A stretch of DNA of 64,000 bases from Eledone cirrhosa (Eukaryota): NCBI GenBank assembly GCA_964016885.1, contig OZ024749.1, positions 9,548,001 to 9,612,000 on the forward strand. The letters are read 5' to 3'. Numbering within the stretch: position 1 is the stretch's first letter; each line of letters starts with the position of its first letter. Below the pieces are notes generated by a model. It saw only the letters and a list, made by a program, of their open reading frames with translations. It was not told where the DNA came from and did not search any database. Positions 3,669-54,345 of this stretch are shown here, in pieces. Both the position numbers and the translations under genes were made by a program.

Positions 3669-3669
3669 T

Positions 3670-5700
3670 GTTGTCCCTTCACTCAGCTTCTAACACTGGA
3701 GATGTATTACAATGTTAGCTGTTTACTACCAGTTAACTGAGTTAACATCCCTTATTTTTCGAGTACTCTCCAGAGTATTTGAGCTGTTCAAAGGTTCCAT
3801 CCATATTGCGATCCCTATTTGTTTAAGGTACTTCTCAAGACTCCAACTATTATTGGTATTACCACCACCTTTTACAGGGACCACAACTGCCTAATCTCCC
3901 AAGCTAACCTATCATATTTATCATTGTTTTCCTTCTTTATCACATACCTTGTTATTAGATGGACAGGCTATTTCTATGATCCAACTCGGTTTGCTTTCTT
4001 TCTTAATTAATACAATATCTGATCTATGTTCAATTCATGGTCACGCTGTATCACAAAGTCCCACAGGATCTTTGCATCATCATTTTTAATAATGTCGTCA
4101 GTTGGCAATATCGGTAGAAGGTCGGACGCCATGCTTTGCAGCATAGAGTTACAGCCCTTTATGATCTGAGTTCAAATCGCGCCGAGGTTAACTTTGCCTT
4201 TCATCCTTATGGGGTCGATAAAATAAAGTACCAGTCAGGCACTGGGGCGATTTAATCGACTTTCCCCTCCCCCACATTGTGCCTATATAAGAAACCATTT
4301 TTATTAATGCCCTTGTGGTTAGGTTTTTACCACTTTTCTGCTCTGTTGAGTGCATATTTGCCACAAAGTGCCCAATGGACTATCCTTGCTATGTTATTGT
4401 GATGTCTCTTATATTCTTTCTGAGCTAGTGGTGTACATTGACTGGTAATATGCCATACAGTTTCTCCATTCATGCCACATATTCTACACTTATCACTTTC
4501 TCTTGTGTAGTCTACTCTATGTTTGATGTAGTTAGTTCTTGGTGCTTGTTCTGGAGCAGCACAGATTAAGGCTTCTGTTTTCTAGTTTTATATCACTTTT
4601 AGCCATCCATAACCACTTTTTTTCCTGTCCTATTTTTAACATCTCTATGGAATTGTCCATACATTCTTTTTTCTGTTTACTTTCAGTTTCATCTTCAAAT
4701 ACTTGTACTGTGTTTTATCTCTACAATCTTCTATTTTACCCATCCCTGACCTTCTTCCAACAACTGTGGTTCTGTGGAATTATTTATCTACCATACCATG
4801 TTATTTTCTTCTGTTCTAATGCTGTCTTTGCACCCCATCAGTCCAGTTCCTTCCTCTCTTGGTATATATAACCTATCTGTGTCACTGTTTGTGTGAAATA
4901 CTCCAATATCTAATCAATATCTTTCTTATCTTTCAGTTTAAACTGTTTAGATCTTCCACTGTCCATGTGATCACACCTGCCCCATATCTAAGGAGTGATA
5001 CCACCCATGTATAGATAGTATCCATCTTATTCCATGACATCTACGCCCAAATTTTCTGCTACAACAATACTTGCTGACTTTATCAGGTCGTTTGGTTCTG
5101 TGGTGTTATTTGTTTTGATGTATTTCAGAACTTCATTCACCTTATATATTTCTTAGTTCAGCTTGCATTGGTCATCCTTCTTTAGGTTGCAAATAAGATT
5201 CCTATTGTCCTCCTGTAACCTTGTCTTTATTCTGTCCTTCATCGCCTTCTCTTTACCTGTCATGTTTACATTAATTTTATTGTCTTCCATACCTACCATC
5301 TACAATTCTCTCACCAGACAGACCATCTCTACCCTGTTTCTGTGGGTTACCAGAAATCTCTTCACCCTTGTCCTCTGCTGTAGTTTCCCTTTCATCAATA
5401 AACCTTCATTTTCACCATTTCTTTCACTGCTGTTTCCTGATACCCGTCTTTTGATAGCTTCAAATTCCACTTCTGTCAACAGTGATTTCTTATTGCTCTG
5501 ACTTGGTCACATGACCTCTGCTCTGTCAGCTGAAACAATCTTCTTTCTCTCCAGTTTTTATATATTCGTTGTTGGTATCCTTTGATATGGACATCATTTT
5601 CCTCTACAGGGTTACTCAAGTAGTAACACTCCATGACCACAACATTTACTTGTTTACTCTGCCTTCATCATGGCTGCTAGTTCATAGCTGAATAATGACC
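3670..5700 (-). mobile_element. Degraded, internally deleted R4/Dong-type RLE non-LTR retrotransposon, interrupted by a SINE at about 4100-4305
   Basis: Minus-strand translation gives CRICGMNGETVWHITSQC..YKRHHNNIARIVHW (CCHC knuckle plus RHN-like motif) and KILWDF. Confidence 0.75.
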
Positions 5701-5711
5701 TGCTGGAGACA

Positions 5712-6417
5712 AGGTTCACTTTGCCTTTCATCCTTACGGGGTCGATAAAATAAAGTACCAGTAATGTGCTGGGTAAATGCTGGCCTTGTGCCAAAAGTAG
5801 AAACAATTATTATTCCCGCCGAGGTTAGCTTTGCCTTTTATCCTTACTGGATTGATAGAATGAAGCAGCAGTATTGCACTGGGGTTGATTTAATCGACTT
5901 TCCCTTCTCCCCAAATTGTTGGCCTTGTGACTAAATTAGAAACCTTTATTATTATCATTATATGGTGGTGGATTGGCAGTATCGGTAGAGGGTCGGACGC
6001 CATGCTTTCGGCGGGATTTGAACTCAGACCGTAAAAAAACGTAGAGTTACATCCCTTTATCGTCTGAGTTCAAATCCTGCTGAGGTTAATTTTGTCTTTC
6101 CTGATGGAGTTGATTAAATAAAGTACCAGTAATACACTGGGTTGATTTAATTGACTTTCTCCTTCTTTAAAATTATTAATCTTGTGCCTAAATCAGAAAC
6201 CATTATTATTTGGCAGTATCAGTAGAGGGTCGGACGCCATGCTTTCCAGCATAGTTACGTCCCTTTACGGTCTGAGTTCAAATCCCGCCGAGGTTGACTT
6301 TGCCTTTCATCCTTACGGGGTCGATGAAATAAAGCACCAGTAATGCACTGGGTAATTGCTGGCCTTGTGCCTAAAGTAGAAACAATTATATATCATTAAT
6401 GTATTAGCAGTATCATT
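5712..6417 (+). mobile_element. SINE cluster (about 4 copies plus a split SINE head)
   Basis: Same SINE consensus. Confidence 0.85.
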
Positions 6418-9400
6418 TCATTTCATTTCATTTCATTTCATTTCATTTGAGTTTGACTCCATGCTCAGGCCAAGTCGAAGACTCCACCCTCAGAGTCTGG
6501 TGTGGTTGCCAGGTTGGATTCTCTGTTTAATTTTGACATGTGTAGGAGCGAGTTTGAGTCAGTTTGTGCTCGTTGTGTATATCCTGGGAGATGGGGTTCA
6601 TCTCTAATGGTGCTTAAGTATCTATCCAGCTGCAATTTGAATGATTCCACACTGCATCCTGATAGATTTCTGACATGTACCGGAATGGAGTTGAATAGTT
6701 GTGCCCCTCGAACCAACAGACTTGACTGTCGCAGGGTTTTTGCTGCCTGGCCAGCCCTTTTGTTGATTGGTGGTAGCTGGCAGCGTCTTCTGTGGCACAG
6801 TGAGTGGTAGGTTTTGGTACCAAAGTTTGGCACCTTTTGCTCTATCATTTTCCAAATGTATATAATTCGGTATCGCTCAAATCTTCTTTCTATTGAGTAC
6901 ATCTTCAAGGTTTTGAGTCTTTGCCAATAGTCCAGGTCCCTCGTTTCTGAGAAGTATGAGGTAAAATTTCTTTGGAGCGATTCCATCTTAGATAGTTGGC
7001 CCTTTGTTGTTGGTGACCACAACTGAGAATAGTAGTCAATCCTCGGAAGTACCATACTGTTCCAGAGGGTTTTCATTGTTGAGGTATCTCTTGATTTGAA
7101 GGTGCGCAAGATCCACCCGCTGTACTTTCTTGCAGTAAGACAGACTGAGTCAAGGTGTTCTCTGAATTTTAGGCTGGTTCCCATGTGGGTGCCTAAATCT
7201 TTCACACACTGTTTTCCCATTATTTGTTGTCCTGATGGGTTTCTGTAGTTTGTTGTATTTTTCAGATCTTGATCTGTTCCATAGCGAATTAGTTCAAACT
7301 TCTTATCATTGAACAACATATTGTTTGTTTCCTGCCATTTGTATATGGTGGTTAGGTCCTTTTGTAAGGCCTCTGTATCCACCTCGTCTTTGATTTGTCT
7401 CATGACTCTGGTGTCATCAGCAAAGGATGAGACGTTGCTGGTTGTATCTTCATCTATGTCAGAGATGAGGATGAGAAACAGGATCGGGCCGAGTACTGTA
7501 CCCTGAGGAACACTGCTGGTCACAGGTGATGGTGTTGAATGGGTTCCATTCACAGCGACTGTTTGAGTTCTATTTGTAAGGAACTCATGTATCCATGTAC
7601 CAACTTTTCCTCCTACTCCTAGCTTTCGAAGTTTGTGTCCCAGGATGCCATGATCTACCTTGTCAAATGCTTTGGCAAAGTCGAGGTAAATAACATCTGT
7701 GTTGTATCTATTCTCTAGATTTTCTAGGATTTGGTCATGGTGTGCCAGTAGTTGGGAAAGACATGATCTACCTAACTTAAATCCATGCTGATTGCAATTC
7801 ATCAGATTGTTGGATTCCAGGAACTCAACCAGTTTTCCACGAACTATTCTTTCGAAGACCTTGATAATGTGTGATGTCAGTGAGATTGGTCGGTAGTTCT
7901 TTGGTTTTGATTTGCTGTCCCCTTTATGTATTGGAGTTATGTGTGCTTCTTTATATGTATTTGGTATTTTGCCATTCTCCATAGATTCCTTCCATATCAT
8001 GTAAAGGGGTTTCAACAATTGTACCTTGCAGTTTTTAAGTATCATGGCATTGAAACCATCAGACCCCGCAGCCGAGTGCATGGAGAGCTTGTCTATGGCT
8101 CTTTCTATGTCTTCTGAGTTGAAATCAATGTCGGATAGGGTAGGTTTAGTATGGTCGATATCCTTGAAGAATTCTCCTGGGTCATGGATCTTCATGGTTT
8201 TAGATGGCTCACTGAAGACACTTTTATACTGTTGACCCAACATTTCTGCCATTTCAATAGGGTTATTCACTACATCCCCATTTTGTCTCTGGAGAGGTCC
8301 TATTGTTGACTTGGTATTCGAGTATTTCTTTGCAAAACTGTAGAAACATTTTGGATTTTTCTTGATGTTTTCTATGGCTCTCTTTTCTGCATTGTTACGT
8401 TCTTCATCATAGTGTTGTTTTAGATTGTCTTCTAATCTGTATATTTGGTCAAGGACTTTCTGTAGTTCATGTTTTGATGTCAGCTTAGATGTTTTGTTTC
8501 TTAGTCTTGACCTTTTGCGCATCAGGATCTTTCGCTCCCGTGGTACAGGTTTTTTTTGTGGATTTGGTTTTCTTAAGAGGAATATTTTTTGCACATATTT
8601 CTTCGATCTTGTTTAAGAATTTCTTGTGTTTATCTGGCCCAGTAAGGTAGAGATCCCAGTCAATGATTTGTAACTGGTTGTTAATAGTTTCCCAATTTGC
8701 CTGGTGATAATCATACCTGCATAGCTTTGGCATGTCCTTTTGTTTAAGAGTTGAGGCATTGGGCTCATTACCAATGCATTTCAATAATATTGTGGTCTGA
8801 AAGGATTGTTGGGGTTGAGTGAAGGTCAAATAGCGTGTCCTCGTTGTTGGTGAAAACCAAGTCGATCGTATTATTATTTCTAGTTGCTTCTGTCATCATT
8901 TGTTTGAGGTATAATTTCTCTGTGACTTCCAACAGTTTGGCTGCCTGTATTTGTTCAGCTTTTGTCCCCAGTTTTAGTATGTGTCCATGTGGCCAGATGA
9001 TGTTAGGGAAGTTGAAGTCACCAAGGAGGATAATGTCTGGCATTGGACTCGCCATGTTTCCCAGAATTTGTTGGAGCTTTGTCAGTGGCTCTGTGAAGGA
9101 TAATGTTGGGCTGTTTGGCGGTCTGTACATTATTGTTACAACTGTATTAAGTTGGATGATTTTTATGCACAGCAGGTTGCAGTAAGCATTTGATTCATTG
9201 ACAAGTTCTATGCATGCATAGGTATCATGGATATACATGATAACGCCCCCATGGGATCTGCCTTGTCTATCACATCTGAAGATGTTGAATCCATTGATTG
9301 AGATTTCGCTGTTGCGGATGTTTTCGTTGAGATGACTTTCAGTAATTCCAATTATTTTGGAGTTGTTTTCTGTTGCTAATTCTTCCAAGAAAGGGACTTT

Positions 9401-9800
9401 ACACTGTTTTTTTTTCGGATAAAGACCCTGGATATTTGCTGTTATTATGCTTGTTGTACCGGATACATCTGCCCTATTGTTGGCAAGACTGTTGTAGTTG
9501 CTGGGACTGTGCTGACTGGATATTCGGTCTGCTGGGCTGTCTGTATTTGTTGTATGTGCCCTGTAAGTCCAGGTGTCAGCCTTTGTATCAATGTTGCCTG
9601 GTTTTGCTGAGTCATCTGTATGGAGTACAGCTGTTGTTGTAGTTGGTAGATTATGCCTAAAAAACTGCTTTCATTCATTACTGTATCGAATTTCTGCGAG
9701 TTTGAGTTTGTTACAGCTGATGTGTGCAATTGAGTAGCATGATTTTCATTCACTGTTGAGCCATGTCCTGGTTTCTGCATTTTTGGGAAATGGTTGAGCA
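6414..9800 (-). mobile_element. CR1-group LINE, 5'-truncated: Q-rich ORF1 end, APE endonuclease, RT, (TGAAA)n tail
   Basis: EN motifs GITESHL, LGDFN, IDLVF, SDH; RT motifs YLDFAKAFD, PQGTVLGP, FADD; (TTTCA)n at 6414-6447. Confidence 0.9.
6465..9388 (-). pseudogene. LINE ORF2 (EN+RT) broken by two frameshifts near 8770 and 8590
   Basis: Overlapping ORFs 8768-9388, 8485-8829 and 6465-8594 form one ORF2. Confidence 0.88.
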
Positions 9801-10190
9801 TCTGACAAAATGTTTTGTAGTATTTAGTTACAACTTTCTACATTCTGAGCTTAAATCCCACTGAGGTTAACTTTGCTTTTCATCCTTTCAGGGTTGATAA
9901 AATAAAGTACCAGTAATGCATTGGGTTCAATTTAATCGACTTTCTCTTCCCTTTCAAATTGCTGGCCTTGTGCCTAAATTAGAAACAATTATTATTATTA
10001 TTATCATTATTATCGGTAGAGGGTCGGACGCCATGCTTTCCAGCATAGTTACATCCCTTTACGATCTGAGTTCAAATCCCGCCGAGGTTGACTTTGCCTT
10101 TCATCCTTACGGGGTCGATAAAATAAAGTACCAGTAATGCACTGGGTAATTGCTGGCCTTGTGCCTAAAGTAGAAACAATTATTATTTCC
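9795..10190 (+). mobile_element. Two SINEs; the first is the body of the SINE split by the LINE
   Basis: SINE consensus. Confidence 0.85.
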
Positions 10191-10194
10191 ATTA

Positions 10195-10560
10195 TTATTT
10201 TTATTGTGCATCATTACTATTTTACCGAGCACAGCTCTGTGCACCTTGGGTATGTGCAGTGTAGTTTTTGCTGACGTTGTTTCTATTGTATTGATAGTAC
10301 TTTTCGTAATATCTGTGCAGTGCTTAGTAGTGCTAACTTTTGTATGCTGTATATATTTGTAAGTCCTGGGGTTTTGGTTATGTATTTGTCTGTGTGTTTT
10401 TTTTATCATTCCCAGAGCACCTATTATTATAGGGGTTTTTCAACATCCAAGTTATTTCTATTTCTAGATCTTTATATTTAGAGAGATTCTCTATTTCCTT
10501 GGAAGATATATTGTCATCTGTGGGGCTTGATACATCTATCAGAAGGCATTTTTTTCTTTT
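10195..10560 (-). mobile_element. R4/Dong-type element 3' end (RLE nuclease C-terminus)
   Basis: Minus-strand translation LLIDVSSP..SKYKDLEIEI..PIIIGALG..ILRKVLSIQ*. Confidence 0.75.
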
Positions 10561-10925
10561 TCAAATCTCACCAGGGTTAACTTTGCCTTTCATCCTCATG
10601 GGTTTGATAAAATAAAGTACCAGTCATATACTGGGGTCAATTTAATCGACTTTCCCCTCACCTTCAAATTACTGGCCTTGTGCCTAAAGTAGAAACAATT
10701 ATTATTATTATTATGAGGTCAGTGGTTTGTTAGTATCAGTAGAGTGTCAAACAACATGCTTTGTGGCACAGAGCTATGGCTCTTTACATTCTGAGTTCAA
10801 ATCCTGTTGAGGTGAGCTTTGCTTTCATCCTTACAAAGTTAATAAAATGCTGGGGAGGATTTGATAGATTTTCGCCTTCTCTTCAATTTGCTGGCCTTAT
10901 ACCAAAGTAAAAACTATTATTTTTA
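10561..10925 (+). mobile_element. Two older SINE copies
   Basis: Diverged SINE consensus. Confidence 0.8.
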
Positions 10926-13650: not shown

Positions 13651-13862
13651 ATATTTATTAAAATAACAGATTAAAGTTTAAGCAAAGAGTCGCTGCTTTC
13701 ACCCTTAACGAGAAGATCTCGTTAAGGATGAAAGCAGCGATTCTTTGCTTAAACTTTAATCTGTTATTTTAATAAATATTTGCTCTAGGGTTCTTATATA
13801 TTTGATATATATTTATCCTTATCGAGCCCTCTTTGAATTTTAGTCTTCACATTTATTATTAT

Positions 13863-13866
<4 letters not shown>
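13651..13866 (+). mobile_element. Fold-back PLE stub, same family as 27389-28690
   Basis: Arms 13651-13713/13717-13779, tail nearly identical to 28600-28690, (TA)n on both sides. Confidence 0.85.
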
Positions 13867-18639: not shown

Positions 18640-18761
18640 TTTCCATACATTGTTTCACCTTAGTCGGACCATCAGCTCAGTTTAAATGAGATTATAATCT
18701 CATTTAAACCAAGCTGAGGTGAAACAATTGTTCTCAGTAATTAACTGTTGTGGAATTACTC
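18640..18761. mobile_element. Degenerate fold-back hammerhead stub
   Basis: Inverted arms around 18703; minus strand ctgag-CTGATGG-tccgactaaggt-GAAAcaat; ends in (TA)n. Confidence 0.5.
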
Positions 18762-19680: not shown

Positions 19681-21730
19681 CATCATAATCTCATCATCAT
19701 CTTCATTTAACGTCCATCTTCCACGCTAGCATGGGTTAGACGAGAGTTGTCCCACTTCAGGCAAGGCTGGTCGGGTGACCGTGTCTCGTTCATATAGGAC
19801 TATCTGGCAGGTTTTCTACAGCTGGATGCCCTTCCTAACACCAACCACATTTACAGTGTGGAACTGGGAACTTTTTACCATGTTACCTACACGGCCACAT
19901 TACAGTGTGGACTGTGTTTATTTTGTTGTGACACCTACACGATCTCGATCTCATTATCTCATCTATTTGGACTGGATGTTGTGGTAACAACTTTACAGAG
20001 AGAGGGTGGTGTTGGTGGATAGGGTAGGGGTAGTGGATTGGGGTGTATATTTGGTTAAGAGGTGCCTACTGACTGTAGGTTTCACTTTGTACATCGGCAA
20101 GGTGGATCTTCTGTATTACTGCGTAGTGCCAAAGATCTCGGTCTAGTGATATTGTCTTAGAGAGGTGCAAATGTGCAAGGTCGGAATTTATCAGATTGTC
20201 CCAGGTTTTTCTGGGTCTACCTACTCCATAACTACCATCAATTTTGATCGCCCGGCACTTTTTTATATAGCTGTCGTCTTTCATGCGCATCACGTGGCCA
20301 TACCAATGTAGTCTTCTCTCAAGTAAACAGCATCTGATCCGTCTTATACCTAATTTCTCACTTAGTTCATTTATGCTTTGCCGTTCATGTATTACACATC
20401 CAACGGAGCATGCATGCTTCGTTCCTTTCCAGTCTGTGCAGGTCCTCTGCACGCAATGCCCATGTCTCACTACCATGTAGCATTGCTGTTCGTATACAGG
20501 CATCATACAATCTGCCTTTCATTTTTAGAAAGAAACCTTTTGTGGCCAACAGTGGTATAAGCTCTCTGAACTTTTTCCATCCCGTTCTGACTCTGGCTAC
20601 TGTATTTTCAGAGCCCCCTCCACCACTGCTGATTTCATCACCCAGATAACGGAAGGTGTCCACTATTTCTATCAAACCATCTGGGCAACCTATGGGTACT
20701 TGCTACTTATTGCACCTGAGCATCGGCCTAATATAAAGTCTACGTTCTTAGATAGTTTACCTGTGATCCCACTACATCTTTTATGTACCCATAATTTGCA
20801 TTTGGGACATAAAAGGGAATTTCTGCCTACTCATTTCCTACACACTGAGCATGGCCATTTTCCTGAGGGCCCTATTTTCCTTTCTGCAAACTAGAACTTT
20901 AGTCTTAGACAAGTTAACTTTAAGGCCTTTTGATTCTAGGCCATGCTTCCATGTTTCGAATTTCTTCTCTAGTTCAGCCATAGATTTAGCTATGAGAGTT
21001 AGATCATCTGCATATAGGAGTTCCCATGGACAGCCGGTCTTGAACTCCTCTGTTATAGCCTGAGGGGCAATAATAAATAGGAGGGGGCTAAGGACAGAGC
21101 CTTGATGAACACCAATTTTTACACTAAATTCTTCACAATATTCATTGTTAATTCTAACCTTACTGAGTGTTTCTTTATACATAGCTTGTATAGCTCTCAC
21201 AAGCCATTCATCTACACCTAGTTTTCTAAGAGCCCACCAGATAATGGAGCAGGGGACTCTGTCAAAGGCTTTTTCCAGGTCTATAAAAGCTAAGTAGAGG
21301 GGCTTACTTCTAGGTACTTCTCCTGTAGTTGTCGTACAAGGAAAAGAGCATCTGTGGTACTTTTACCTGACACAAACCCAAACTGCATTTCATCTAGATC
21401 AATTCGCTCTCTGATTAGTTGCGCTATAACTCTTTCTGTGACCTTCATGACCTGCTCAACTAACTTAATGCCTCTATAGTTTCCTCTATCTCGAGCATCC
21501 CCTTTACCCTTGTAGCAGTTAATGATGATGCTGCTACACCAGTCTTTTGGTATGACCCCATTCTGTATTACTTGGTTAACTATACGGGTGACCATAGTAT
21601 GTCCCACCATTCCAGATGCCTTCAACATCTCAGCAACTATCTCTGAAGGTCCAGCTGCCTTGCCTGTCTTCATATTTTTGATTGCCTTACTTATTATACT
21701 ACCTTTAACTTCCACCGCTGGTCCTTCTAA
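19681..21730 (-). mobile_element. RTE LINE (PHD-in-RT family), frameshifted
   Basis: RT motifs [17 protein letters not shown]; 3' UTR and tail. Confidence 0.9.
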
Positions 21731-21879
21731 TATATAAATATATATGTACTTTGAAAAATAAAACCAAACACTGCTAACTATATTATATTTTAATTTACAT
21801 ATGTTTGATCCTTAATATTGAAAGCTCAATAATAAGAATCCTATCTGTTTTCGTATTTGAAAAAAAACAAATTACTTTA

Positions 21880-26423: not shown

Positions 26424-26596
26424 TCATTTTTATTATAGCTAAATAGTGAGTCTTGTTACTCTGGAGTTTCACCTGCTTCGCCTGTGAAAAGCAGGTGAAA
26501 CTCAGAGTAACAAGACTCACTATTTAGCCATAATAAAAATGAATGTTTAAGCTCTACTTCAATATTGAGTACTCTTTTCTCTTTACCATCAACTAC
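26424..26596 (+). mobile_element. Fold-back PLE stub with hammerhead 3' half
   Basis: Arms 26424-26478/26489-26542; cctg..cagg-t-GAAA-ctcagag-TA; TA flanks. Confidence 0.75.
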
Positions 26597-27030
26597 ATAT
26601 ATATATATATAAATGTAATCTGAGTTTTTCGAATATTAATAATAACATTCGATTCGTTTGCAATTATGCATGCAAGCCTCAATTTTATAGCCATGTCTGT
26701 AGAATGAACCCTTCATTCTTGCTCTTGTGTTGGCATGTGAACAGAACTGCAGAGACAGTCCTATATGAGCAAGACACAGTTACCTTCCCTAACTTGTCTC
26801 TAATGGGACACCCCATCTAACCCATGCTAGCATGGAAAATAAACATTAAATGATGATGATGATGATGATATATATATATTTATATGCCTGTTTGTGTGTG
26901 TGTGATATCAGCTGGCCATGTTCTTTTCTATCCATAGGGTTATTTTACCTGATTTTCTAAGGTATTGTTTATAGCAATTAACTCTTATTGCAGTTTTTTT
27001 TCTGTATTTGGGATTCTTACATTTTCTAAA

Positions 27031-27094
<64 letters not shown>

Positions 27095-27100
<6 letters not shown>

Positions 27101-27372
27101 AGATTTGAATGGATACAGTTTAGTTGAAAGGAATTTATTGACACGTGTTTCTATAACAGTTACATAACCTGAAAGCAGCTGTTTTCAGGTTATGTAACTG
27201 TTATAGAAACACGTGTCAATAAATTCCTTTCAACTAAACTGTATCCATTCAAATCTTTCTATTTTTCTCCGGATTACTTTTGGAACTACAACTGGAACCG
27301 TCGAGCAAACTCTACGTGAGCTGTCAATCTACTGTGTGTAATATTTATATTACAACACAACGGAAAATACTG
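27095..27372 (+). mobile_element. Fold-back PLE stub, 168-nt near-perfect palindrome plus tail
   Basis: Symmetry centre 27178/27179; GAAA-cacgtg-TC hammerhead 3' half; TA flanks. Confidence 0.8.
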
Positions 27373-27388
27373 TATATATATATATATA

Positions 27389-28687
27389 TTTATTAAAATA
27401 ACAGATTAAAGTTTAAGCAAAGAATCGCTGCTTTTTACACTGGGAGATCCTAGCTAGGGCTAGATCGTATAACGGAAATAAAAGACCATGTGACCTCTGC
27501 GCCGCTGAGGCCCTGGAAATACTCTATGCCACAGACCACATCTTAAACAAAAAATCTGAGGCAATTTCGGCTTGTAAACATAAATTGCACAAAACTTTCC
27601 TGTATTACAGCCCCACGTTATACCCTAACGGATAGTACGATCTATACGTGGATATTTTACGTCTTGATGTGGAAGCTAAGTATATGTTTTGTTTATTCCT
27701 TTACTTATTTGCATAGGTAAGTATATATTACCCGTATGTTTTGTGAAGGTATGTATACCTTCTCGTACGTATATTTGATTGCTATGGCGTATAATTTTAT
27801 ATATTCTGGTACATAGGGTTTGGCTATGTGTATACGGGAGTTTTTCGTCTGTGTGAGTATGCAGGTTCGTACGTATGGTGGGTGTGTGTATATGTGTACT
27901 TCTTGTTTTAGTTGACTTACGTCTCCGAACATTCGTGTATTTATATGTAGGTATGTGTGTGCGCTTGTTATATACGTATTTATTTATATACGTTTATATA
28001 ATTATTTATTTATTTGTATACACGCATACACACACACACATATTTATATGTGCGTGGTTTTGTATACCTATGGTAAGGTTTTGCATATGCTTGTGTATGT
28101 ACGTATTTGTTTGCGTGTATGTATTTATTTACTTTGTTCTTAACTCTGTAGTGGAGATTCATTTGGTCTCCTAGTTAGAATTTTAGTCTACGATTTCTGC
28201 TATACCATTTACGTGGTTTTGTCTTTGCCTGCTATTGTTCTCCACGCTCCACATATGACGTATTATCTTCGTTTTTTCGTTCATTGCCAGAGAACGTCTC
28301 TATGCACCACTTAAGAGAACATTAGTCTACGACCTCTTTTATACCATAAACGTGGTTCTGTCTTTGAGCGTAATAGTTTTTCACCGCTCCTATTAATGAC
28401 GTATTATTCGTTTTTTCCCCGTTCTTTGCCAGCGAACGTCACCACGAACCAAAGTATCGTCTTCCTGTCTTCCCTCGGTTGCAACGTTTTTTGAAATATC
28501 CAGTTCTGCGTTTACAGATTGACTTTGTTAGTTTCAGAAGATCCCGTTAAGGGTGAAAGCAGCGATTCTTTGCTTAAACTTTAATCTGTTATTTTAATAA
28601 ATATTTGCTCTACGGTTCTTATATATTTGATATATATTTATCCTTATCGAGCCCTCTTTGGATTTTAGTCTTCAAATTTATTATTAT

Positions 28688-28690
<3 letters not shown>
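27389..28690 (+). mobile_element. 5'-truncated PLE (Nematis-like): inverted arm, GIY-YIG C-terminus, 3' UTR, tail
   Basis: 27435-27635 translates LHWEILARARSY..CDLCAAEALEIL..LNKKSE..CKH..*; arm 27389-27434 inverts 28556-28601. Confidence 0.8.
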
Positions 28691-28739
<49 letters not shown>

Positions 28740-29175: not shown

Positions 29176-29178
<3 letters not shown>

Positions 29179-29431
29179 TATAAGAATAAAGGAACAAGGA
29201 TTCAGTGATCAAGGATTCTATGTGATCTCTTCTCTGATTTTATGATAAAATCAGAGAAGAGATCACATAGAAAATACATATCTGATGATCTTTCGATTGC
29301 GGCGTCAGGTTCAATCTATAATAGGTCTTTCCTCGAGCTGATCGATAGTGAAACATATGTAATATGTTATTAGATATGTTATGATGCAACACTGAATCCT
29401 TGTTCCTTTATTCTTATAGTATTATACTCTG
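29176..29431 (+). mobile_element. Double fold-back PLE stub
   Basis: Outer arms 29176-29207/29390-29421, inner arms 29216-29243/29245-29272. Confidence 0.8.
29276..29367 (+). ncRNA. Intact-looking type I hammerhead ribozyme
   Basis: acatat-CTGATGA-(tcgat..atcga stem II)-GAAA-catatg-TA-atatgt; predicted cut after 29361. Confidence 0.85.
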
Positions 29432-32265: not shown

Positions 32266-32571
32266 GTTTAAACCATCTCAATGATTCCGTAATACGTATT
32301 TCAGTGGTTTAATTTATCTTTGTGTTGTGTGTTTTTTTTATTTATCCCCCCCCCCCCCCATACAAACCAATAAAGCCACTAAAATACAAGGAATTACTGA
32401 GAAGTTAAAAGACAAGACAGAGATAACATAATTCAAGGGGAGAGAAGATTATGATTGATGTTGCTTTTGAATTTTTGCAAATTGTAGGGGGCAGGAAAAT
32501 AAAACGCCAAAAGATAATTCCATAGGCGGGCTGTGTGAAGAAAAACACTATCAGAATAGAATTTGCAAATA

Positions 32572-33866
32572 CAGGGTGTGGACGATATTTGTTCGCAATT
32601 TTCAACTGCTAATTTTATGCAAATTCTTTTTACTTCCGTTGTCACTCTTGTCTTCATAAAAACAGTGACTATATTTCCATTATTTATTTTCAGAATAATT
32701 GATTATGAATAATTTTGAACCTCCAAATTTGTGGAAGAGACACGGAGTTCTTCTTGGAATCCGCAGCTGGAGGACAAATAAGAAAATTTCAGACTTTCTC
32801 AGCGTCAGCAGGAGAATGGTGGAAAAGGTCAGAAAGGAATTGGAAGATTCAGGATTTGACTATGAAGCAACATCAGAGGGGAAAACACATGATCGACGAT
32901 CTGATGCCTTCAGAACGCCCGAGTTCGTTACTGAAGTTCAGGATATCATCCACAATGAACCTAGCAAGTCAATGCGTGCCATTCCAAGGGAGAAAAACGT
33001 GGATGAAAAGCTCATTAGGCTGGTGGTACATGAAGACATTCGCTACGTTTCATACAAGATGAGGAAAGGACAATTTCTGTCAAAGGCGATGCAAGAAAAG
33101 CGACTGAAGCACGAAAAGAAGCTGATCAACAAGTTGGAACACCCACTGGAGCCAGACATGCTGTGGTTTTTCTCCGACGAGAAAAACTTCTGCCAAGACC
33201 AGAAGATAAACTCCCAGAACAACAGGTGGCTCGCTGTCTCATCCAAAGATGTGCCCAGAGTCATGCAGACAAAGTTTCCAGCGACAACATTGGTCTTAGG
33301 TGTCGTCAGCAGTCAAGGTGATGTCATGCCACCTCACTTCTTCCCTGAGAGCCTCAAGCTGAACACTGATGGCTACATCCACGTTCTAAGTGAGGTAGTA
33401 AAGCCCTGGATCAACCAGGTAACTGTAGGTAGGCCGTACATGTGGCAGCAAGACTCAGCGCCCTGCCATACCAGCCGAAAGACCCAAGCCTGGCTGTCAG
33501 AGAACTTCGTCGACCACACTTCACCTGACATCTGGCTCCCAGCTCGCCTGACTGCAACCCCCTCAACTTCTTTGTGTGGGGCACAGTGGAACGAGACGCC
33601 AACAGATCTAGCTGCAATACGAAAGTCGATCTGAAGGCCAGGATCACAAGTGCCTTTAGGGGCCTAAGTCAGGGGACAGTGACGAAGGCCTGTAGCCGGT
33701 TCTGAGGCCGTCATCAAAGCCAATAGCGGGTTTATTGAGTGAGATCAAAAGAACAAGTCATGAAGACAAACTGACCCAAGTTTGATAAATAAATCTTAAA
33801 AAATAAAACTACTGTGTTATTTTTTCCTAGACAGTAATCTTGCGAACAAATATCGTCCGCACCCTG
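32572..33866 (+). mobile_element. Full-length Tc1/mariner DD37D (maT) transposon
   Basis: 27-bp TIR cagggtg(t/c)ggacgatatttgttcgcaa, TA on both sides. Confidence 0.92.
32699..33741 (+). pseudogene. DD37D transposase with a frameshift near 33540 and third catalytic D read as N
   Basis: FSDEK, WQQDSAPCH, then shifted SSPDCNPLNFFVW; 37 residues between the 2nd and 3rd catalytic positions. Confidence 0.85.
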
Positions 33867-33901
33867 TATATATATATAAATTTCTACGATTCTATCACAA
33901 C

Positions 33902-36061: not shown

Positions 36062-36893
<832 letters not shown>

Positions 36894-36904: not shown

Positions 36905-37307
36905 ACTCGACAGGTTTTCTGGAGTATAATATTCAATGATATTAAATAAATGGAAACTATATTTATAAAACCATATTTATACTATTATATATATTTCAAG
37001 GGTACCAAAATTTTATCATCAGATAAAATACAAAGTTTGTTTTATAAATATTGATATATCCAGGAAAGAATAACTTAACGGTTCAAGTTTTTCCTGGAGA
37101 GTCTGATGTATTTTATCTGATGAGGGCGTACCAAAGTTTTGGTACACTTGAAATATATATAATAGAATAAATATGGTTTTAGAAATATATTTTCCATTTA
37201 TTTAATATCATTGAATATTATACTCCAGAAAACCTGTCGAGTGCTTTTAATCAGTTATAAACATTTATATTTGTTGAATTACCAACAAATTGAATATAAC
37301 TTTTGCT
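36905..37307 (+). mobile_element. Fold-back PLE stub with intact-looking hammerhead
   Basis: Arms 36905-37031/37108-37242, tail to 37307, TA flanks. Confidence 0.85.
37109..37169 (+). ncRNA. Intact-looking type I hammerhead ribozyme
   Basis: tattttat-CTGATGA-gggcgtaccaaa.g.ttttggtacactt-GAAA-tatata-TA-atagaata. Confidence 0.85.
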
Positions 37308-39250: not shown

Positions 39251-39656
39251 AGACGTTTATCAACAGTTAAAGCAGTCTGTTTTTCTTTCCTCCCCAAAAT
39301 ACATAAATACAAATAAGCACACACCACCTGGTTCTCCTTGGGGTATGAGTTAATTTCCAACTATAGACAGTAGCACCGAATGTTGTTTTAAGTCAATTAG
39401 CAATTAGTGAATAATGAAGCTACTACCAATACGATGTAGAGATGAGACAGTGTTAGTGAGTACAGAAACTGTTGGTGTACTCTTGCTTATAATACAGCAC
39501 AGCTTCCGACAAATTAATATTGTCATCATATTTTGTCTTTTGATTTAAATGATGTTTTTTTTCTCATTTCTATATGAAATTTAAGCAACACCTGATATCA
39601 AAAGTGCATGTATGCATACCTCTCTCTCTATATATATATATATATAGTAATAATAA

Positions 39657-39749
39657 TAGTAATAATAATAAATTTGAAGACTAAAATCCAAAGAGAGCTC
39701 GATAAGGATAAATATATATCAAATATATAAGAACCCTAGAGCAAATATT
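39657..39749 (-). mobile_element. Isolated tail of the 13651/27389 PLE family
   Basis: Reverse complement of 28600-28690; TA flanks. Confidence 0.8.
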
Positions 39750-39889: not shown

Positions 39890-40164
39890 TAGAAAGTGAG
39901 GTTTTTTTTACAAAATGAAAAATAACCGAGGTGTCCTACACAAGTGAAAGGAAAAAGAAAAAAAAGATGAAATCGAAAATGCAACTGGAGTCTTATTTTT
40001 AAAAATATATATATATATTTAATTGGTTCCTTTACCCTCCATCTCAACTCTACTTTTGAAAAGCAGAAGAACTGCGAAACCGGTAAAGGAACCAAATAAA
40101 TATATACATTTTTTTTTTAAAATAAGACTCCAGTTGCATTTTCGATTTCACCTTTTTTTCTATC
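39890..40164 (-). mobile_element. Fold-back PLE stub; degenerate hammerhead on + at about 40052-40090
   Basis: Arms about 39958-40036/40082-40160; TTGAAAA-gcag(aagaa)ctgc-GAAA-ccgg-TA. Confidence 0.7.
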
Positions 40165-44429: not shown

Positions 44430-44771
44430 AGTAGATTGGCAGAATCATTCAAATCCCACCAAGGTCTATTTTACCGTTCATCCTTTTGAGGTTGATAAAA
44501 TAAAGTACCAGTCACATACTGGGATCGGTGTGATGACCTTTTCTCTCTACAAATTGTTGCCTTGTGCCTAAATTAAAAATCATTATTTTTGGCAGTATCG
44601 GTAGAGGGTCGGACGCCATGCTTTGACGCAAAGAGTTACATCCCTTTCCATTCTGAGTTCAAATCCCGCCGAGGTTAACTTTGCCTTTCATCCTTACGGG
44701 GTCGATAAAATAAAGTACCAGTAATACACTGGGTAATTGCTGGCCTTGTGCCAAAAGTAGAAACAATTATT
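44430..44771 (+). mobile_element. Two SINEs
   Basis: SINE consensus. Confidence 0.85.
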
Positions 44772-44777
44772 TACTCT

Positions 44778-45130
44778 TACTTAACTCTTAGCCCAGCTTG
44801 TTCCGTCAGTAACATAAGTCAACCAATCGTTTCCAGTGCTGTCAGTGGCGGTGGCAGCAGCTCGTTGACATCCATGCCAGATGATATTGACGATTTCTAG
44901 GTCACTTTGGAATGTCCACTGCCATGTCATCTTCGGTTGGCCTCTTTTCCACTTGCCTTTGGGGGTAGTCCACATCATCGCCATTTTGGACGGGTGATGT
45001 TCTGGGAGGCACAGAATGTGATTGACAAAATGGAACCGATGCTCTGTGATGATCTCCTACAGTGTATATGACCATGCTCCCCACAGGATCTCTTTCTTCC
45101 TAACCTAATCTCAACAGGTGACCTTTATAC
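44778..45130 (-). mobile_element. RTE-type LINE 3' end with (TAAGAG)-like tail
   Basis: WTTPKGKWKRGQPKMTW motif. Confidence 0.6.
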
Positions 45131-45194
45131 TATTATAAGACTATTTTATTTAGTCAAAGTTACAACGAAATCTTCTAATTTAATTTTTATATAC

Positions 45195-45528
45195 ACCTCC
45201 GTCCCACTACCCCCACCCCATCCACACCACCCCTTTCAATGTAAAGTTATGTTGGTACCACAACATCCAGCCTGAAACAAATGAGGTCGTGTAGGTGTCA
45301 CGACAAAAAAATACACAGTCCACGCTGTAATGTGGCCGTGTAGGTAACGCGTTAAAAACCTCCCAGTTCCACACTGTAAATGTGGTTGGTGTTAGGAAGG
45401 GCATCCAGCCGTAGAAAACCCACCAGACAGTCCTATGCGAGCAAGACAACCACTCTTGCCTCAAGTGGGAAAACTCCCGTCCAAACCCATGAAAGCGTGG
45501 AATATAGACGTTAAACGATGATGATGAT
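45195..45528 (+). mobile_element. RTE (PHD family) 3' UTR copy
   Basis: Near-identical to the reverse complement of 52145-52480. Confidence 0.85.
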
Positions 45529-45892
45529 ATACATTATTTTGTCCAACCCCTGTATATGTTTATGTATAATAAATATACAAGATTTTTGCTATGAATGCGT
45601 TAAGCCTTAATTACATCACAACTATCTCAGTAGCATGTAAGAATATCAGACAGGTGTTTCTGGATTTTCATCGTTCATTGGTGACATTTACTCATTATTG
45701 AGACTAGAATACACAATAATGTATGGTTTTTATTGGTAACATATATAGTATTAACCCATTTGTGACCATATTTCTAATGAAAAACACTGCTAATGTGTTT
45801 CTGTCAACATTTAAAGTAATCCAGAATTTGGAAAGATTTAACAAAATAACTAGCTTGTCCATAATTATTTGGATGTTTGGAATATAACTTAA

Positions 45893-46104
45893 CCCTTTAG
45901 CATTTAAATCTGGCCAGAATTATGTCACTTCTTTCTGTTCAAACTGGCCATGACTGGCTGCTCATAATTATGTTACGGTATTGTTCTCAAAATAAATAAT
46001 ATCAAAATCTTATAAATTCGATATTATGTGAGATAATTATGTGAAATAAAGTGTTTACCATGAAAATAGAACAGTAAATATAGAGTAATGTAAATGCTAA
46101 AGGG
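45893..46104. mobile_element. piggyBac-like MITE
   Basis: Same TIR family; TTAA on the left, TTAG on the right. Confidence 0.8.
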
Positions 46105-46332
46105 TTAGTGGTTTCTGATTTATGCACAAGGCCAAGTCGACCTCAGCACATTACTGGTACTTTATTTTAGTGATCTTGTAAGGATGAAAGGCAAAGCTAA
46201 CCTCGGCAGGTTTTGAACTCAGAATGTAAAGGGACGTAACTGAATGCCACAAAGCATGTTTAGAATATAACAATAAAATGTTCTTACATAAAGTTCTGAC
46301 AGAAGGTTCAAATTTACATATGCACACTTTAA

Positions 46333-46538
46333 CCCTTTAGTGTTCAAACCGACCCAAACCGGCCAGAATTCTCTACCTCCTTCTGTTGAAATTGGCTGTA
46401 ACTGGTCGCTCAAACTGATGTTAAGGTATTGTTCTCAAAATAAATACTTCCAAAATCTCATAGATTCGATATTATGTGAGATAAAGCCTTTACCATGAAA
46501 ATATAATAGTATATATAAAATAATGTGATGCTAAAGGG
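46333..46538. mobile_element. piggyBac-like MITE
   Basis: TTAA-ccctttag...ctaaaggg-TTAA. Confidence 0.8.
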
Positions 46539-49061
46539 TTAAAACAGATTGTTTTATCATAGAACCAAGGTGGTCTCGGGCAGGCTGGTTAATACAAATT
46601 TATTATAAAGTCGCCCTAATAAAAGAAAGGGGTAAACCTGGGTGTGTCAATTTCAGTTTTAATTGATGTTTCATCAGATTTAGTGTAACTAAGGTCAGAC
46701 ACTGTTGTCAATTTATAAACAGTTTATAGAAATCTACAGTTTCTCAGATAGACATGTAGGACCTTGACAACACAACTATGTATATTATCATCAAGCAGTG
46801 GCATGCAGAGAGGGGTGACAACATGTTTATTTCATGTTTCACAAAAGTGTGTAACAACCCCGGACAACCAGTAACAGCCCCCCCCCCCCCCCCCGGACAA
46901 CCATATCGAGGCAGGTCATAGGGCATCCAGCCAAAGAGTCATGCAGGATTTTCCATTCAATATGGCTACTGAGTACAGCAGCCACATAGATTTCTCAAGT
47001 GCCCATCTAAAACCTGCACCCAGTTTTCCACCCAAATCAAAAAGGCTGAGAAATTTATTAATATGAAATTCAATCCATATACAGCCACATACATATCCAA
47101 ATGTATGTGGCTGTTTTTATATTAATTTGAAGTGTTTATTTCATGTTTCACCTGATTTTACATATTTAAAATGTCTTCCTTGTTCACTTTTCTCAGTACT
47201 AGGCCCTATAGTTGAGTTTTAGGAGCATACAATCAACAAGTTGGCCTCTACCCACCACTACCATCAAGTAGATTAATTATTTCTCCAATGTGACCAAACC
47301 TCTTAATTCTTACAGACTCAATCATCCTAATTCTATTAATTATGGATACAATTAACAAATATTTCATACTGTCATAAACAGTGGGATAACTGTACAATTA
47401 AACATTTTGTTCATTCGCAAATTAGATTGGATTGAATTGGTATAACTGACATGGAACTGTTCATACTATAACACATTTTTCATACATTGACATCCAGCAT
47501 GAAATAACTATGGCATTCTTATTATCATTATCATCATTGTCGTCATTTTTATACCAACTTTTTCGTGCTGCCATTTTGAGGTACTGCTTTACATCTAGAT
47601 TCCCTGCTTGTTGCCAAACCCTTTTAGTTACCTCTTGTGATTTACAGAGATATGGTGTACCAATTCTAAATCCCGAAATACACAAACACATGCATGGACA
47701 CACATACATTCACACTCATACACACATATATATATATGTGTCTGTGTGAGTGTGTGTGTGTGTGTGTGCATGTGTGTGTATATAAATATATATATGTGTG
47801 CATGTATGTATATAAATAAAAATATATGTGTGTGCGTGTGTGTATATATATAAATATATATATATATGTGCACGTGTGTGTGTGTATATATAAATAAATA
47901 TATATATATTTACATGTGAGTGAGTGTGTGTGTGTGTATGTGTATATATAAATAAATATATATATATATTTACATGTGAGTGTGTGTGTGTGCCTTGATT
48001 GACTGCAAGGAATCTCATATCCTACTTTTGTCAGCAAATATTTCAGAGAAATAACACTGGAAACTCCATAGAAAAAATTCTGTTTTACAAACAATTGATA
48101 ATGTCATATTCTCCATGAAAAGATACAATAAAAGAAATAAAATCCACTGATATGCTTTGTATTGCAATCATTCCTCATCAGTAATAACAGTTGTATTGAT
48201 GTTTTAATTGTCTTCTCATGGCATTAATCAAAAAGAAGACCTTAATAAACACAGCAAAGAGTTAATCACAATCAATATCTAATAAAATTAAATCCCGGAA
48301 ACAAATCCCATGCCGTTGTCATCTTCATTTGACACTAATGATTTGTAACACCCAAACACATGGGAATCATTCTCCATTGTACTGTGAAGCAGCCTCTAAT
48401 CTATAAAATTAAAGTTTCTCTAGAAAACATCTTCAGCTGCTTTCCTTCGTTGAAAGAAATGACATTTTTCTTTAGACCTAGCATTCAGTTCTGTTTATTG
48501 TCTTTGAGTCCAAACACAATAAAAGGGGAGGAAGAATGAAAAAAATCACCTCTTTATTATATTATATTATATTAAATTATATTATATTATATTATATTTA
48601 TTCTATATTGTGTTATTAGTTTATTCATGTTAACTGTTTGCAGATTATTTATTATATTTTGTATAAAGATTTTATTTTATTTTTGCAATATTTGAAATAA
48701 AAGTTTCAAACTGCTGAAAATATTTCATATTAAAAATGTTATTAAATTGTGTAAATGTCCATGAAATATTGTGTATATGTAAATACACGATATTGTTTAA
48801 AGTGATTGGTTTGTTTCAAATATAAACTATTGTTTAATGAAAATAGTTTCAACTACATGGGTATATGTTTTATCATTAAGCTATATCTTTTAGGTAGAAA
48901 ATGACCTCAGCAGGTATTACTTCTGATCCATCTCCCTTCCTTTGTTGTCTATCATCCTTGAATAATTTCTTTTCTATTTGACCCATTTATCACCAGCTGT
49001 ATAGCACCATTAATGGGCATTTTCCAATGTGACAGACTTTTACAACACAAGAGTACTAACA

Positions 49062-50045
49062 TTAGAGGGTCGGACGCCATGCTTTCCAGCATAGTTACGT
49101 CCCTTTACGATCTGAGTTCAAATCCCGCCGAGGTTGACTTTGCCTTTCATCCTTACGGGGTCGATGAAATAAAGTACCAGTAATGCACTGGGTAATTGCT
49201 GGCCTTGTGCCTAAAGTAGAAACAATTAATATAGTAGACAATGTTGTGGATTGGCAGTATCGGTAGAGGGTCGGACGCCATGCTTTCCAGCATAGTTACA
49301 TCCCTTTATGATCTGAGTTCAAATCCCGCCAAGGTTGACTTTGCCTTTCATCCTTACGGGGTCGATGAAATAAAGTACCAGTAATGCACTGGGTAATTGC
49401 TCGTCTTGTGCCTAAAGTAGAAACAATTAATATAGTAGACAACAAACGAAAGGATGGCTGTATGATGCCTGTGTGCAAAGTGCATTTCTGCATGGTAGTA
49501 AAACATGAGCAGAGGTTGGCTGCAGAGGATATGTGTAGACTGGAGAGAAATGACAGAACTTGGATGAACTGAGATAAAAACTGGGTACAAAAGGAATGAG
49601 AAGTAGTGTGCAAGAGACACATTGGTATGGACATGTAATGTGCATGAATGATGATCACTGGGTGAAAAAGTACCAAGAAATCGCAATAGAAGGAAGCTGC
49701 AGTAGAGGCAGACCAAGGAAGACCTGGGCAGAGGTGAGAGCTGATCTCAAATCACTGAAACTCGCTGAGAAGATGACAAAGGGACGTAATGTGGAGAGGT
49801 AATGTGTTGAAAAAGATCCATTCAACTCATATAAGCATGGAAAAGTGAATGTAATAATAATTGTTTCTACTTTTGGCACAAGGCCAGCAATTACCCAGTA
49901 CATTACTGGTACTTCATTTTATCGACCCCCGTAAGGATGAAAGGCAAAGTTAACCTCGGCGGGATTTGAACTCAGATCATAAAGGGCCGTAACTCTATGC
50001 TGCAAAGCATGGCGTCCGACCCTCTACCGATACTGCCAATCAAAT
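49062..50045. mobile_element. Two young + SINEs, RTE 3' fragment (49445-49850, +), one - SINE (49855-50040)
   Basis: SINE consensus; WYGHV..RGRPRKTW; aatatagtagacaa duplicated around the second SINE. Confidence 0.85.
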
Positions 50046-52138: not shown

Positions 52139-54345
52139 ATCATCATCATCATCATCGTTTAATGTCCATATTCCACGCTTGCATGGGTTTGGACGGGAGT
52201 TTTCCCACTTGAGACAAGAGTGGTTGTCTTGCTCGCATAGGACTGTCTGACTGGTTTTCTACGGCTGGATGCCCTTCCTATCAACAACCATATTTACAGT
52301 GTGGAACTGGGAGGTTTTTACCGTGTTACCTACACGGCCACATTACAGCGTGGACTGTGTGTTTTTTTGTCGTGACACCTACACGACCTCATTTGTTTCA
52401 GGCTGGATGTTGTGACACCAACATAACTTTACATTGAAAGGGGTGGTGTGGATGGGGTGGGGGTAGTGGGACGGGGTGTGTTTTGTTAGAGGTGCCTACT
52501 GACTGTAGTAGGTTTCACTTTGTACTTAGGTAAGGCGGGTCTTCTCTATTACTGTGTAGCGCCAAAGCTCTCGGTCCAGTGACATTGTCTTGGAGAGGTG
52601 TAAAGGTGTGAGGTCGGAATTTATCAAGTCGTCCCAGGTTTTTCTGGGTCTGCCTATTTCGTGGCTACTGTCTATTTTTATTGCCCTGCACTTTTTTATA
52701 CAGCTGTCGTCTTTCATGCGCATCACGTGACCATACCAACGTAGTCTTCTCTCGAGTAAACAACATCTGATCCCTCTTATTTATAATTTCTCCCTTAGTA
52801 CGTTTATGCTTTGCCGTTCACGTATATTACTATTACACATCCAGCGGAGCATGCAAGCTTCGTTTCTCTCCAGTCTGCGTATATCCTCTGCACACAATGC
52901 CCAGGTCTCACTGCCATGTAATATTGCTGTTCGTATGCAGGCATCATACAGCCTGCCTTTCATTTTTAGAGAGAACCCTTTAGCGGCCAGTAGTGGTATA
53001 AGCTCTCTGAACTTTTTCCATCCCGTTCTGACTCTAGCTACTGTACTTTCAGAGCACCCTCCCCCACTGCTGATTTTATCACGCAGGTAATGAAAGCTGT
53101 CCACTATTTCTATAGAACCCTCTGTGCAATGGAATGAGTTAGTATTCTGTGGGCATTTGCTGCTACTTATTGCACCAGAGCACCGGCCACATATAAAATC
53201 TATATTCTTAGTTAGCTTACCTGTGATCCCACTACATCTTTTATGTACCCATACTTTGCATTTGGGACATAAAATGGAGTTTCTACCTACTCCTTTCCTA
53301 CACACTGAGCATGGCCATTTCCCAGATGGGACCGGTGCCCTATTTTCCTTCCTACAAACTAGAACTTTAGTCTTAGACATGTTAACTTTAAGGCCTTTTG
53401 ATTCTAGGCCATGCTTCCATGTTTGGAATTTCTTCTCTAGTTCGGCCATTGATTCAGCTATGAGCGTTAGATCATCTGCATATAGGAGTTCCCATGGGCA
53501 GCCGGTCTTGAACTCCTCTGTTATAGCCTGAAGGGCAATAATAAATAGTAGGGGGCTAAGGACGGAGCCCTGATGAACACCAACTTTTACGCTAAACTCT
53601 TCACTATATTCGTTGTTAATTCTAACCTTGCTGACTGTTTCTTTATACATGGCTTGTATAGCTCTCACAAGCCATTCATCAACACCTAGTTTTCTAAGGG
53701 CCCACCAGATAATCGAGCAGGGTACTCTGTCAAAGGCTTTCTCCAAGTCAACAAAAGCTAAGTATAGGGGTTTACTTTTAGCTAGGTACTTCTCCTGTAG
53801 TTGTCGTACAATGAAAAGAGCGTCTGTTGTACTTTTTCCTGACACAAACCCGAACTGCATTTCATCTAGATCAATTCGCTCTCTGATTAGTTGCGCTATT
53901 ACTTTTTCTGTGACCTTCATGACCTGGTCAATTAATTTAATGCCTCTATAGTTTCCCCTATCTAGGGCATCACCTTTACCCTTGTAACACTTAATGATGA
54001 TGCTGCTGCGCCAGTCCTTCAGAACGACCCCATTATGTATGACTTGGTTTACTATCCGGGTGACCATAGTATGTCCCACCGTTCCAGATGCTTTCAGCAT
54101 TTCGGCAACTATTTCCGAAGGCCCGGCCGCCTTGCCCGTCTTCATGTCTTTGATCGCCTTACTTATTATACTACCTTCAACTAGCACTGCTGGTCCCTCT
54201 ATTGGGTCAATGTGGGGGAGACTGTCTTTCTCCCAATTATTCTCCTCATTTAGTAGCCTTTCGTAGTGACACTTCCAAGCTACCTTCTTATCAGCATCAG
54301 TGATGGCAAGTACACCATCATCATTTAGGACACACTTCTCCCCGA
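52139..54345 (-). mobile_element. RTE LINE, young 5'-truncated copy; RT with internal PHD finger
   Basis: ORF 52781-54187: [37 protein letters not shown]; frameshifted C-terminus; (GAT)n tail. Confidence 0.92.

Follow-up and report, generated by a model that had tools for sequence, protein, structure and literature searches.

Probable truncated insertions of a Hydra-clade Penelope-like retrotransposon in (TA)n arrays of Eledone cirrhosa

The stretch of DNA analysed here, called the window below, comprises 64,000 nt of the Eledone cirrhosa contig OZ024749.1 (positions 9,548,001 to 9,612,000). It is AT-rich and dense in microsatellites and transposon remains. LINE remains with a reverse transcriptase (RT) lie at 6465-9670, 20066-21811 and 52781-54520; Pfam recognises RVT_1 at 6468-8612 (E 4e-30). 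A single SINE family is represented by about 20 copies, at positions 3-10871, 37735 and 44448-49433. Two elements with terminal inverted repeats in a TA context occupy 32569-33869 and 36062-36893; the 311-aa ORF of the former (32699-33634) has weak HTH matches only in Pfam and resembles a Tc1/mariner transposase. A large canonical Penelope-like element (PLE) extends from 54676 to 58245, with an RT ORF at 55908-57797, an inverted copy of its 3' end longer than 1 kb, and hammerheads at 54811 (minus strand) and 58110 (plus strand). A second PLE fragment is present at 58240-59199.

Three further pieces of the window, a 1.3-kb long copy, a 216-nt mini copy and a short stub, have one 3' end in common. 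The long copy is flanked on the left by (TA)n target sequence (27373-27389), the final 4 nt of which (ATAT) are common to its inverted arm (27386-27434, minus strand). This arm is a second, tail-less and 5'-truncated copy of the element's 3' end, 49 nt long, and matches the reverse complement of 28556-28604 at 49/49 bases. The arm abuts, at a junction devoid of palindrome, an endonuclease ORF (27435-27635, plus strand), which is followed on the same strand by a putative 3' UTR (27636-28529), a hammerhead-like fold (28514-28589), the sense copy of the arm (28556-28604) and an 86-nt tail (28605-28690). A (TA)n run (28691-28737) forms the right flank. The mini copy consists of a 63-nt tail-less inverted arm (13651-13713, minus strand; 61/63 match to 13717-13779) and of a sense half (13711-13865, plus strand) that begins inside the hammerhead core and ends with the 86-nt tail (13780-13865). 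This sense half is identical to the final 155 nt of the long copy (28536-28690) at 150/155 positions, the difference being five substitutions. The mini as a whole is a near-perfect hairpin with a 3-nt loop (hairpin z = -21.6). The stub (39647-39749, minus strand) lies in (TA)n. It consists of the tail preceded by the last 5 nt of the arm, differs from 28600-28690 by substitution at 2 of 91 positions and has its terminal ATT repeat extended by a 12-nt duplication. Within-window BLAST gave E-values of 2e-91 for the mini, 2e-48 for the stub and 9e-20 for the arm, and with a word size of 7 no further copy of the family was detected in the window. The initial annotation had described the arm and tail of the hairpin, together with the tail-only stub, as bracketing a 1.3-kb insert, in a size series of 1.3 kb, 216 nt and 93 nt with a constant 3' end; these identities bear out both points, 93 nt being the length of the stub without its duplication.

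A (TA)n run adjoins five of the six copy ends, the sixth lying inside a degenerate TA array, whereas about 3% of the remaining positions in the window have a (TA)4+ run no more than 10 nt away. TA microhomology of 2-4 nt is present at every copy end. The anatomy of PLE insertions, namely 5' truncation, an inverted 5'-truncated copy and a one-sided tail, is found here, with a tail of 86 nt and not of 30-40 nt.

The interval 27435-27632 translates to LHWEILARARSYNGNKRPCDLCAAEALEILYATDHILNKKSEAISACKH..., that is, 66 codons, followed by a stop located 16 codons past the CxH; a start codon is absent. The motif W.IL..A.SY..CDLC..E..LNKKSE..CKH, noted at the outset within the 1.3-kb insert, is indeed encoded there. 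A phmmer search of 1.84 billion representatives yielded 206 related proteins at E<=1e-3 (best 1.5e-13), the closest showing 45-53% identity. The ten best matches are short (96-271 aa). The pattern CxxC..E..N..CxH is carried by 144 of the best 150 of these 206 matches, and the peptide's own version, CDLC..E..N..CKH, is invariant across 16 aligned sequences. One candidate, P0036, was discarded beforehand as a C2H2 zinc-finger array, and a profile was built from the peptide and nine relatives (10 sequences). The profile search recovered 29 long proteins of 515-806 aa, with Y[RV]DD in 28, DK[TS] in 24, RW[KR] in 16, CxCx5C in 18 and the CxxC..CxH end in 25. A CxCX5C motif also occurs in the near relative P0181. 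In 28 of the 29 the peptide aligns to the final ~60 residues, at 28-47% identity. The similarity to PLEs anticipated by the initial annotation therefore exists, the relatives of the peptide being RT-endonuclease polyproteins with the RT motif in 28 of the 29 long ones, and the GIY-YIG Penelope-like affiliation proposed for the mini-palindrome and the stub stands.

Several other searches gave little. Pfam recognised no family in the peptide, and in two sets of 10 and 6 relatives it gave no RT match and a single sub-threshold GIY-YIG match (P0002, E 0.005), indicating that it does not cover the Hydra-type clade. A word-based search with the peptide among longer proteins returned none from 40 candidates, and a PDB sequence search with the profile returned none. 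The three canonical PLE proteins of the window did not match the peptide (best E 4.3). The predicted model of the relative P0004 (pLDDT 62) had GIY-YIG nucleases (Hpy188I, T4 EndoII) in its top seven Foldseek rows, a weak fold match at E 0.02-0.11 with none at E<=0.001.

Assignment to a clade relies on the residues around the conserved E and N, a poorly resolved tree of 41 endonuclease ends having been left out. Craig et al. 2021 (PMC8557442) described CxxC..E..N..CxH for the endonucleases of Hydra-clade PLEs and attributed the C-terminal CxH to Hydra (Fig. S2 legend); the three Nematis rows of that figure have no CxxC ahead of the conserved E. Compared by eye with Fig. S2 and the text of Fig. 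S7, the peptide fits the Hydra rows and not the three Nematis rows. The Nematis-type C-terminus initially suggested is thus replaced by a Hydra-type one, and a Nematis-clade PLE was rejected on the same by-eye comparison, although that clade likewise has a C-terminal GIY-YIG endonuclease, a pLTR and inverted structures. Very probably, the three pieces are 5'-truncated insertions of one Hydra-clade Penelope-like retrotransposon.

We reject the long copy as the parent of the smaller ones, since it lacks an RT and its endonuclease is reduced to the last 66 residues; it is an RT-less, 5'-truncated sibling. The window contains no RT for a Hydra-type element and no full-length member of the long-copy family, an RT being demonstrated for relatives only. 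The single ORF with an RT (RWK, DKT, divergent RT4) and the CxCX5C linker without CCHH, which mark the Hydra clade, belong to the part that truncation has removed from these copies. The 29 long proteins match the window only at 27435, so the parent lies elsewhere. Nor is the mini a deletion product of the long copy, its arm being the longer of the two (63 versus 49 nt), and the two copies thus stem from separate events. The label "mini-palindrome family" holds in its kinship to PLEs, but such pieces are more aptly taken as the smallest members of a series of 5' truncations.

The putative 3' UTR is about 900 nt, which is long for the Hydra clade, and it includes a tandem duplication (28177-28309 and 28316-28451, 76% identical). 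Either a long UTR or captured DNA could account for the segment 27636-28529; for Pen1_Av, long spacers of captured DNA have been reported (PMC3846280). As a structural analogue we used L001, one of 42 candidate stretches in bacterial/archaeal assemblies, which lies on a contig of a Solemya gill-symbiont assembly and is probably bivalve host DNA contaminating it. It has no nucleotide match to the window and served solely for its layout: positions 1-2248 form a head-to-tail Hydra-type tandem, with an endonuclease end, a hammerhead at 1256, TATATA, GCTCT and an ATG 101 nt on. The distance from stop to hammerhead core is about 130 nt in L001 and in Hydra-1_Obim (by eye for the latter).

The hammerhead-like fold is of type I, with the layout given in File S2 of PMC8557442. 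Stem I pairs 28530-34 with 28576-80 and is extended by 28514-22/28581-89. The core CAGAAGA (28535-41) keeps 6 of 7 bases, U4 being replaced by A. A 3-bp stem II (28543-45/28551-53) precedes GAAA, which starts at 28555, then stem III (28558-61/28571-74) with a 9-nt loop and U17; the predicted cut falls at 28575/28576. Our descriptor, composed after the motif was noticed and permitting one core mismatch, found three hammerhead matches in the window, one of them at 28535; 30 shuffles gave 0.23 on average. Ribozyme activity is called into question by the change at U4, by the 9-nt loop III, by an energy 2.8 kcal/mol above that of the MFE structure and by a stability of the segment that does not exceed that of its shuffles (z 0.08 and -0.85). 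Rfam gave no match at gathering score over the whole window and was likewise blind to the intact hammerhead of L001; its 20 weak matches for the region at E<=5 (18 microRNA, 2 snoRNA) were dismissed as mostly TA-rich sequence. The inverted arm overlaps the fold, a feature that had escaped the first reading. Both inverted arms extend across the predicted cleavage site, which suggests templates uncleaved by the ribozyme. In the mini, core position 4 is missing and the core is broken by the junction.

The two inverted arms stop at the identical base (28604 in the long copy, 13779 in the mini), 49 nt past the first G of the ribozyme GAAA, and both omit the same 86-nt tail, in agreement with the common arm/tail boundary first proposed for these copies. 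The fixed boundary is based on two arms and one stub; it is better read as that of the known PLE tail. In the Hydra-1_Obim consensus, the terminal AAATATA is located 48 nt after GAAA (counted by eye), and according to its metadata four copies terminate at that monomer-end site (PMC8557442). The monomer end of Hydra-1_Ajap is at about +58, with a GCTCT motif at its start (by eye). In the window family the boundary closes on the target-like AATAT, and the tail, which has no ATG, starts with a GCTCT...GAGC motif. GCTCT is offset from GAAA by 52 nt in this family, by 54 in the family of the palindrome at 26424 and by 60 in L001. Judging by Hydra-1_Obim, Hydra-1_Ajap, L001 and the 26424 family, the boundary is likely the monomer 3' end, and the monomer that follows would begin with the tail as its head (start of the 5' UTR), in keeping with the motif order of the L001 tandem. 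The stability of hairpins in the tail is insignificant (z -0.45 to -1.35).

For Poseidon of Anolis carolinensis, in vitro work has shown two RT starts bounding the tail, priming by both strands and an uncleaved template (Frangieh et al. 2024, PMC11167929). An inverted, 5'-truncated copy is common in PLE insertions, as is a tail of 30-40 bp on one side (PMC8557442, PMC3846280). By analogy, both target strands would be nicked by an RT-endonuclease protein made from another locus of the genome, and reverse transcription would have two fixed starts on the RNA, separated by 86 nt. The tail would be the head of the next monomer in a tandem transcript. One target strand would prime cDNA at the tail end, giving the sense copy with its tail, and the other would prime at the monomer end, giving the inverted arm without tail; early-stopping cDNAs joined at their truncated ends would then produce a head-to-head insert tailed on one side. 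Since the arm sequence is present in both orientations, two templates would be needed, either two RNAs or two pLTR regions of one RNA, and these would not have been cleaved by the ribozyme. The stub would be a cDNA spanning only the interval between the two start sites, perhaps a first cDNA that halted on reaching the second of them; alternatively, a truncated cDNA may have annealed at AATAT. Two observations count against such a two-start origin: the tail measures 86 nt versus 30-40 nt in the published cases, and the ends show TA microhomology, whereas the Poseidon start sites lack target homology. On balance we lean towards the two-start mechanism. To the explanation as a whole, that of truncated Hydra-clade insertions with a two-start origin, we assign a probability of about 0.75.

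Other origins of the boundary and of the arms were weighed. The boundary could be fixed merely through the likeness of AATAT to (TA)n, by microhomology annealing and without a protein-defined start; every arm end examined is AT or TAT and merges into the flanking TA run, and the stub ends there too. However, none of the three copies ends or turns at the longer TA-like tracts of the tail, in which TATATAT occurs twice, and in other Hydra elements the monomer end falls at the position of this boundary, which makes annealing alone unlikely. A further scheme retains the same element and derives the arms from a cDNA or antisense template that folds back and primes itself, the boundary being the point at which the endonuclease resolves the copied strand. 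Palindromes at the inverted junctions of rotifer Penelopes were read as self-priming on an antisense template in PMC3846280, and the hairpin form of the 216-nt copy, like the spacer-less mini at 27095, would suit a fold-back. In the long copy, however, the arm ends at the endonuclease ORF, 1,121 nt from its complement and without a palindrome, which argues against simple hairpin snap-back, and fold-back alone leaves the exact omission of the tail by the arm unexplained. We consider this scheme rather improbable.

Two readings deny that the short copies are truncation products. The 216-nt hairpin could belong to an amplified non-autonomous family of fixed structure (SINE-, MITE- or retrozyme-like) moved in trans: non-autonomous PLE derivatives are known (PMC8557442, section 10; bioRxiv 10.64898/2026.07.22.740005) and the window is rich in such minis. 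Nevertheless, each mini is single-copy in the window, tandem arrays are absent, the junction breaks the ribozyme core, and the longer arm of the mini precludes its derivation from the long copy by deletion; an amplified family appears distinctly improbable, and a non-LTR retrozyme was rejected on the dispersed single copies, the lack of a tandem and the broken core. We give almost no credence to a DNA transposon or MITE that targets TA, has terminal inverted repeats of 49 bp and captured a PLE fragment, in spite of the perfect 49-bp inverted repeat and the TA flanks. In both longer copies the 86-nt tail extends beyond the right repeat, and in the stub it stands alone, so that the termini are not both inverted repeats; furthermore, arm length varies, the repeat overlaps the hammerhead-like fold and the insert is collinear with a PLE 3' end. 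This candidate was rejected. The truncated Hydra-clade insertions thus remain our preferred reading.

The window holds more palindromes of this kind. At 26424-26597, a second Hydra-like mini-palindrome of another family lies in (TA)n; its hammerhead 3' half has the stem III seen in Hydra entries (ACTC-A-GAGT), and its tail of ~55 nt contains a head motif, GCTCT...GAGTAC. Another, at 27095-27372, has 84-nt arms, a 113-nt tail and a hammerhead 3' half at 27206, and the (TA)n run at the left end of the long copy also borders it. Other fold-backs containing hammerhead halves are found at 1229-1420, 39968-40160, 29178-29430 (with an apparent full hammerhead at 29283-29370 that has a long loop II) and 18640-18760. 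A complete hammerhead-like motif lies at 37117-37169; its CTGATGA core is intact, no inverted arm is near and (TA)n follows ~140 nt downstream.

The set of minis was obtained by scanning for close inverted repeats and hammerhead halves and picking by eye, a visible GAAA setting a lower bound; the degenerate palindrome 18640-18760 was not counted among the clean minis, its left end being outside (TA)n. In the clean minis at 13651, 26424, 27095 and 1229, the inner end of the arm is at -13, -8, -27 and -16 from GAAA, respectively. All four, from four families, thus turn round within the ribozyme, 8-27 nt upstream of GAAA, and their sense halves start at about -17 to -27 (by eye). The arm of the long copy ends at +1 and that of the element at 39968 at +6. 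Counter-examples to the cluster are the arm at 29178, which ends at +40, and the PLE at 54676-58245, the arm of which exceeds 1 kb and includes a full hammerhead. As a tentative possibility that we hold to be doubtful, mini-palindromes could be a distinct PLE product class of fixed size, for which both reverse transcriptions start at the upstream pLTR/head junction and finish within a hammerhead that has not been cleaved, either by run-off at the RNA 5' end or by stalling. Transcription starts inside the pLTR in Penelope and Chlamys-3 (PMC8557442), and run-off at such an RNA 5' end would therefore explain the turn-round points. Stalling at the ribozyme, or a truncation curve biased towards short products, would explain them equally well. 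In openly accessible papers and the main texts of bioRxiv preprints, we found no report of turn-round points clustering in a hammerhead.

Much of this structure has precedents. The clade, the inverted arm, the tail, the junction palindromes and the opposed hammerhead pairs are already described. The window family shares with the Hydra clade of PMC8557442, which includes Hydra-1_Obim from Octopus bimaculoides, the CxxC and CxH around a conserved E and N, insertion into (TA)n, a hammerhead-like fold near the 3' end with a ctgaagat-stem II-tgaa layout, a monomer end (a probable one in the window family) ~48-58 nt past GAAA and a GCTCT motif at the head. It differs in its 3' UTR (~900 nt versus ~130-260 in Hydra), its 86-nt tail, the A in place of core U4 and loop III (9 nt versus 1-3). 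Its endonuclease end and hammerhead also differ from those of Hydra-1_Obim (by eye). Four family motifs had no true match in the supplement of PMC8557442, one chance match occurring in a non-Hydra file, although line breaks may hide matches. Judged from these sequence comparisons, by eye and by supplement motifs, it is a new family of a known clade, set apart from Hydra-1_Obim. The main text of a 2026 repeat annotation of Octopus vulgaris (PMC13282606), as far as accessible, mentions neither Hydra elements nor palindromes.

Poseidon resembles the window family in its AT-rich target and, under the proposed mechanism, in its tail between two RT starts and its uncleaved RNA template, but belongs to another clade, and its tail lies inside an ORF with starts that lack target homology, whereas in the window family the tail has no ATG and the copy ends carry TA microhomology. 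The Penelope elements of Adineta vaga (PMC3846280) have inverted pLTRs, one of them tailed, with junction palindromes, and Schistosoma (PMC4209133) has hammerhead pairs on opposite strands, 100-700 bp apart, ascribed to truncated PLEs. Unlike the products described there, the smallest ones in the window are hairpins with arms of 50-85 nt, broken inside the ribozyme.

For annotation, hairpins of this type resemble MITEs or microRNA precursors, yet they are the ends of retrotransposons. For mechanism, a reconstitution of PLE integration exists for one element (PMC11167929); the copies in the window bear on the formation of inverted arms and tails and offer a testable in-genome readout: a boundary that probably equals the monomer end, an arm that repeats part of the sense half and would hence call for two templates, and a turn-round inside the hammerhead. 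Should the mini-palindromes prove to be a product class of their own, a genome full of them would allow both start sites, the 5' end of the transcript and the requirement for two templates to be mapped in dozens of families together, among them those of the Hydra clade, which has been little studied.
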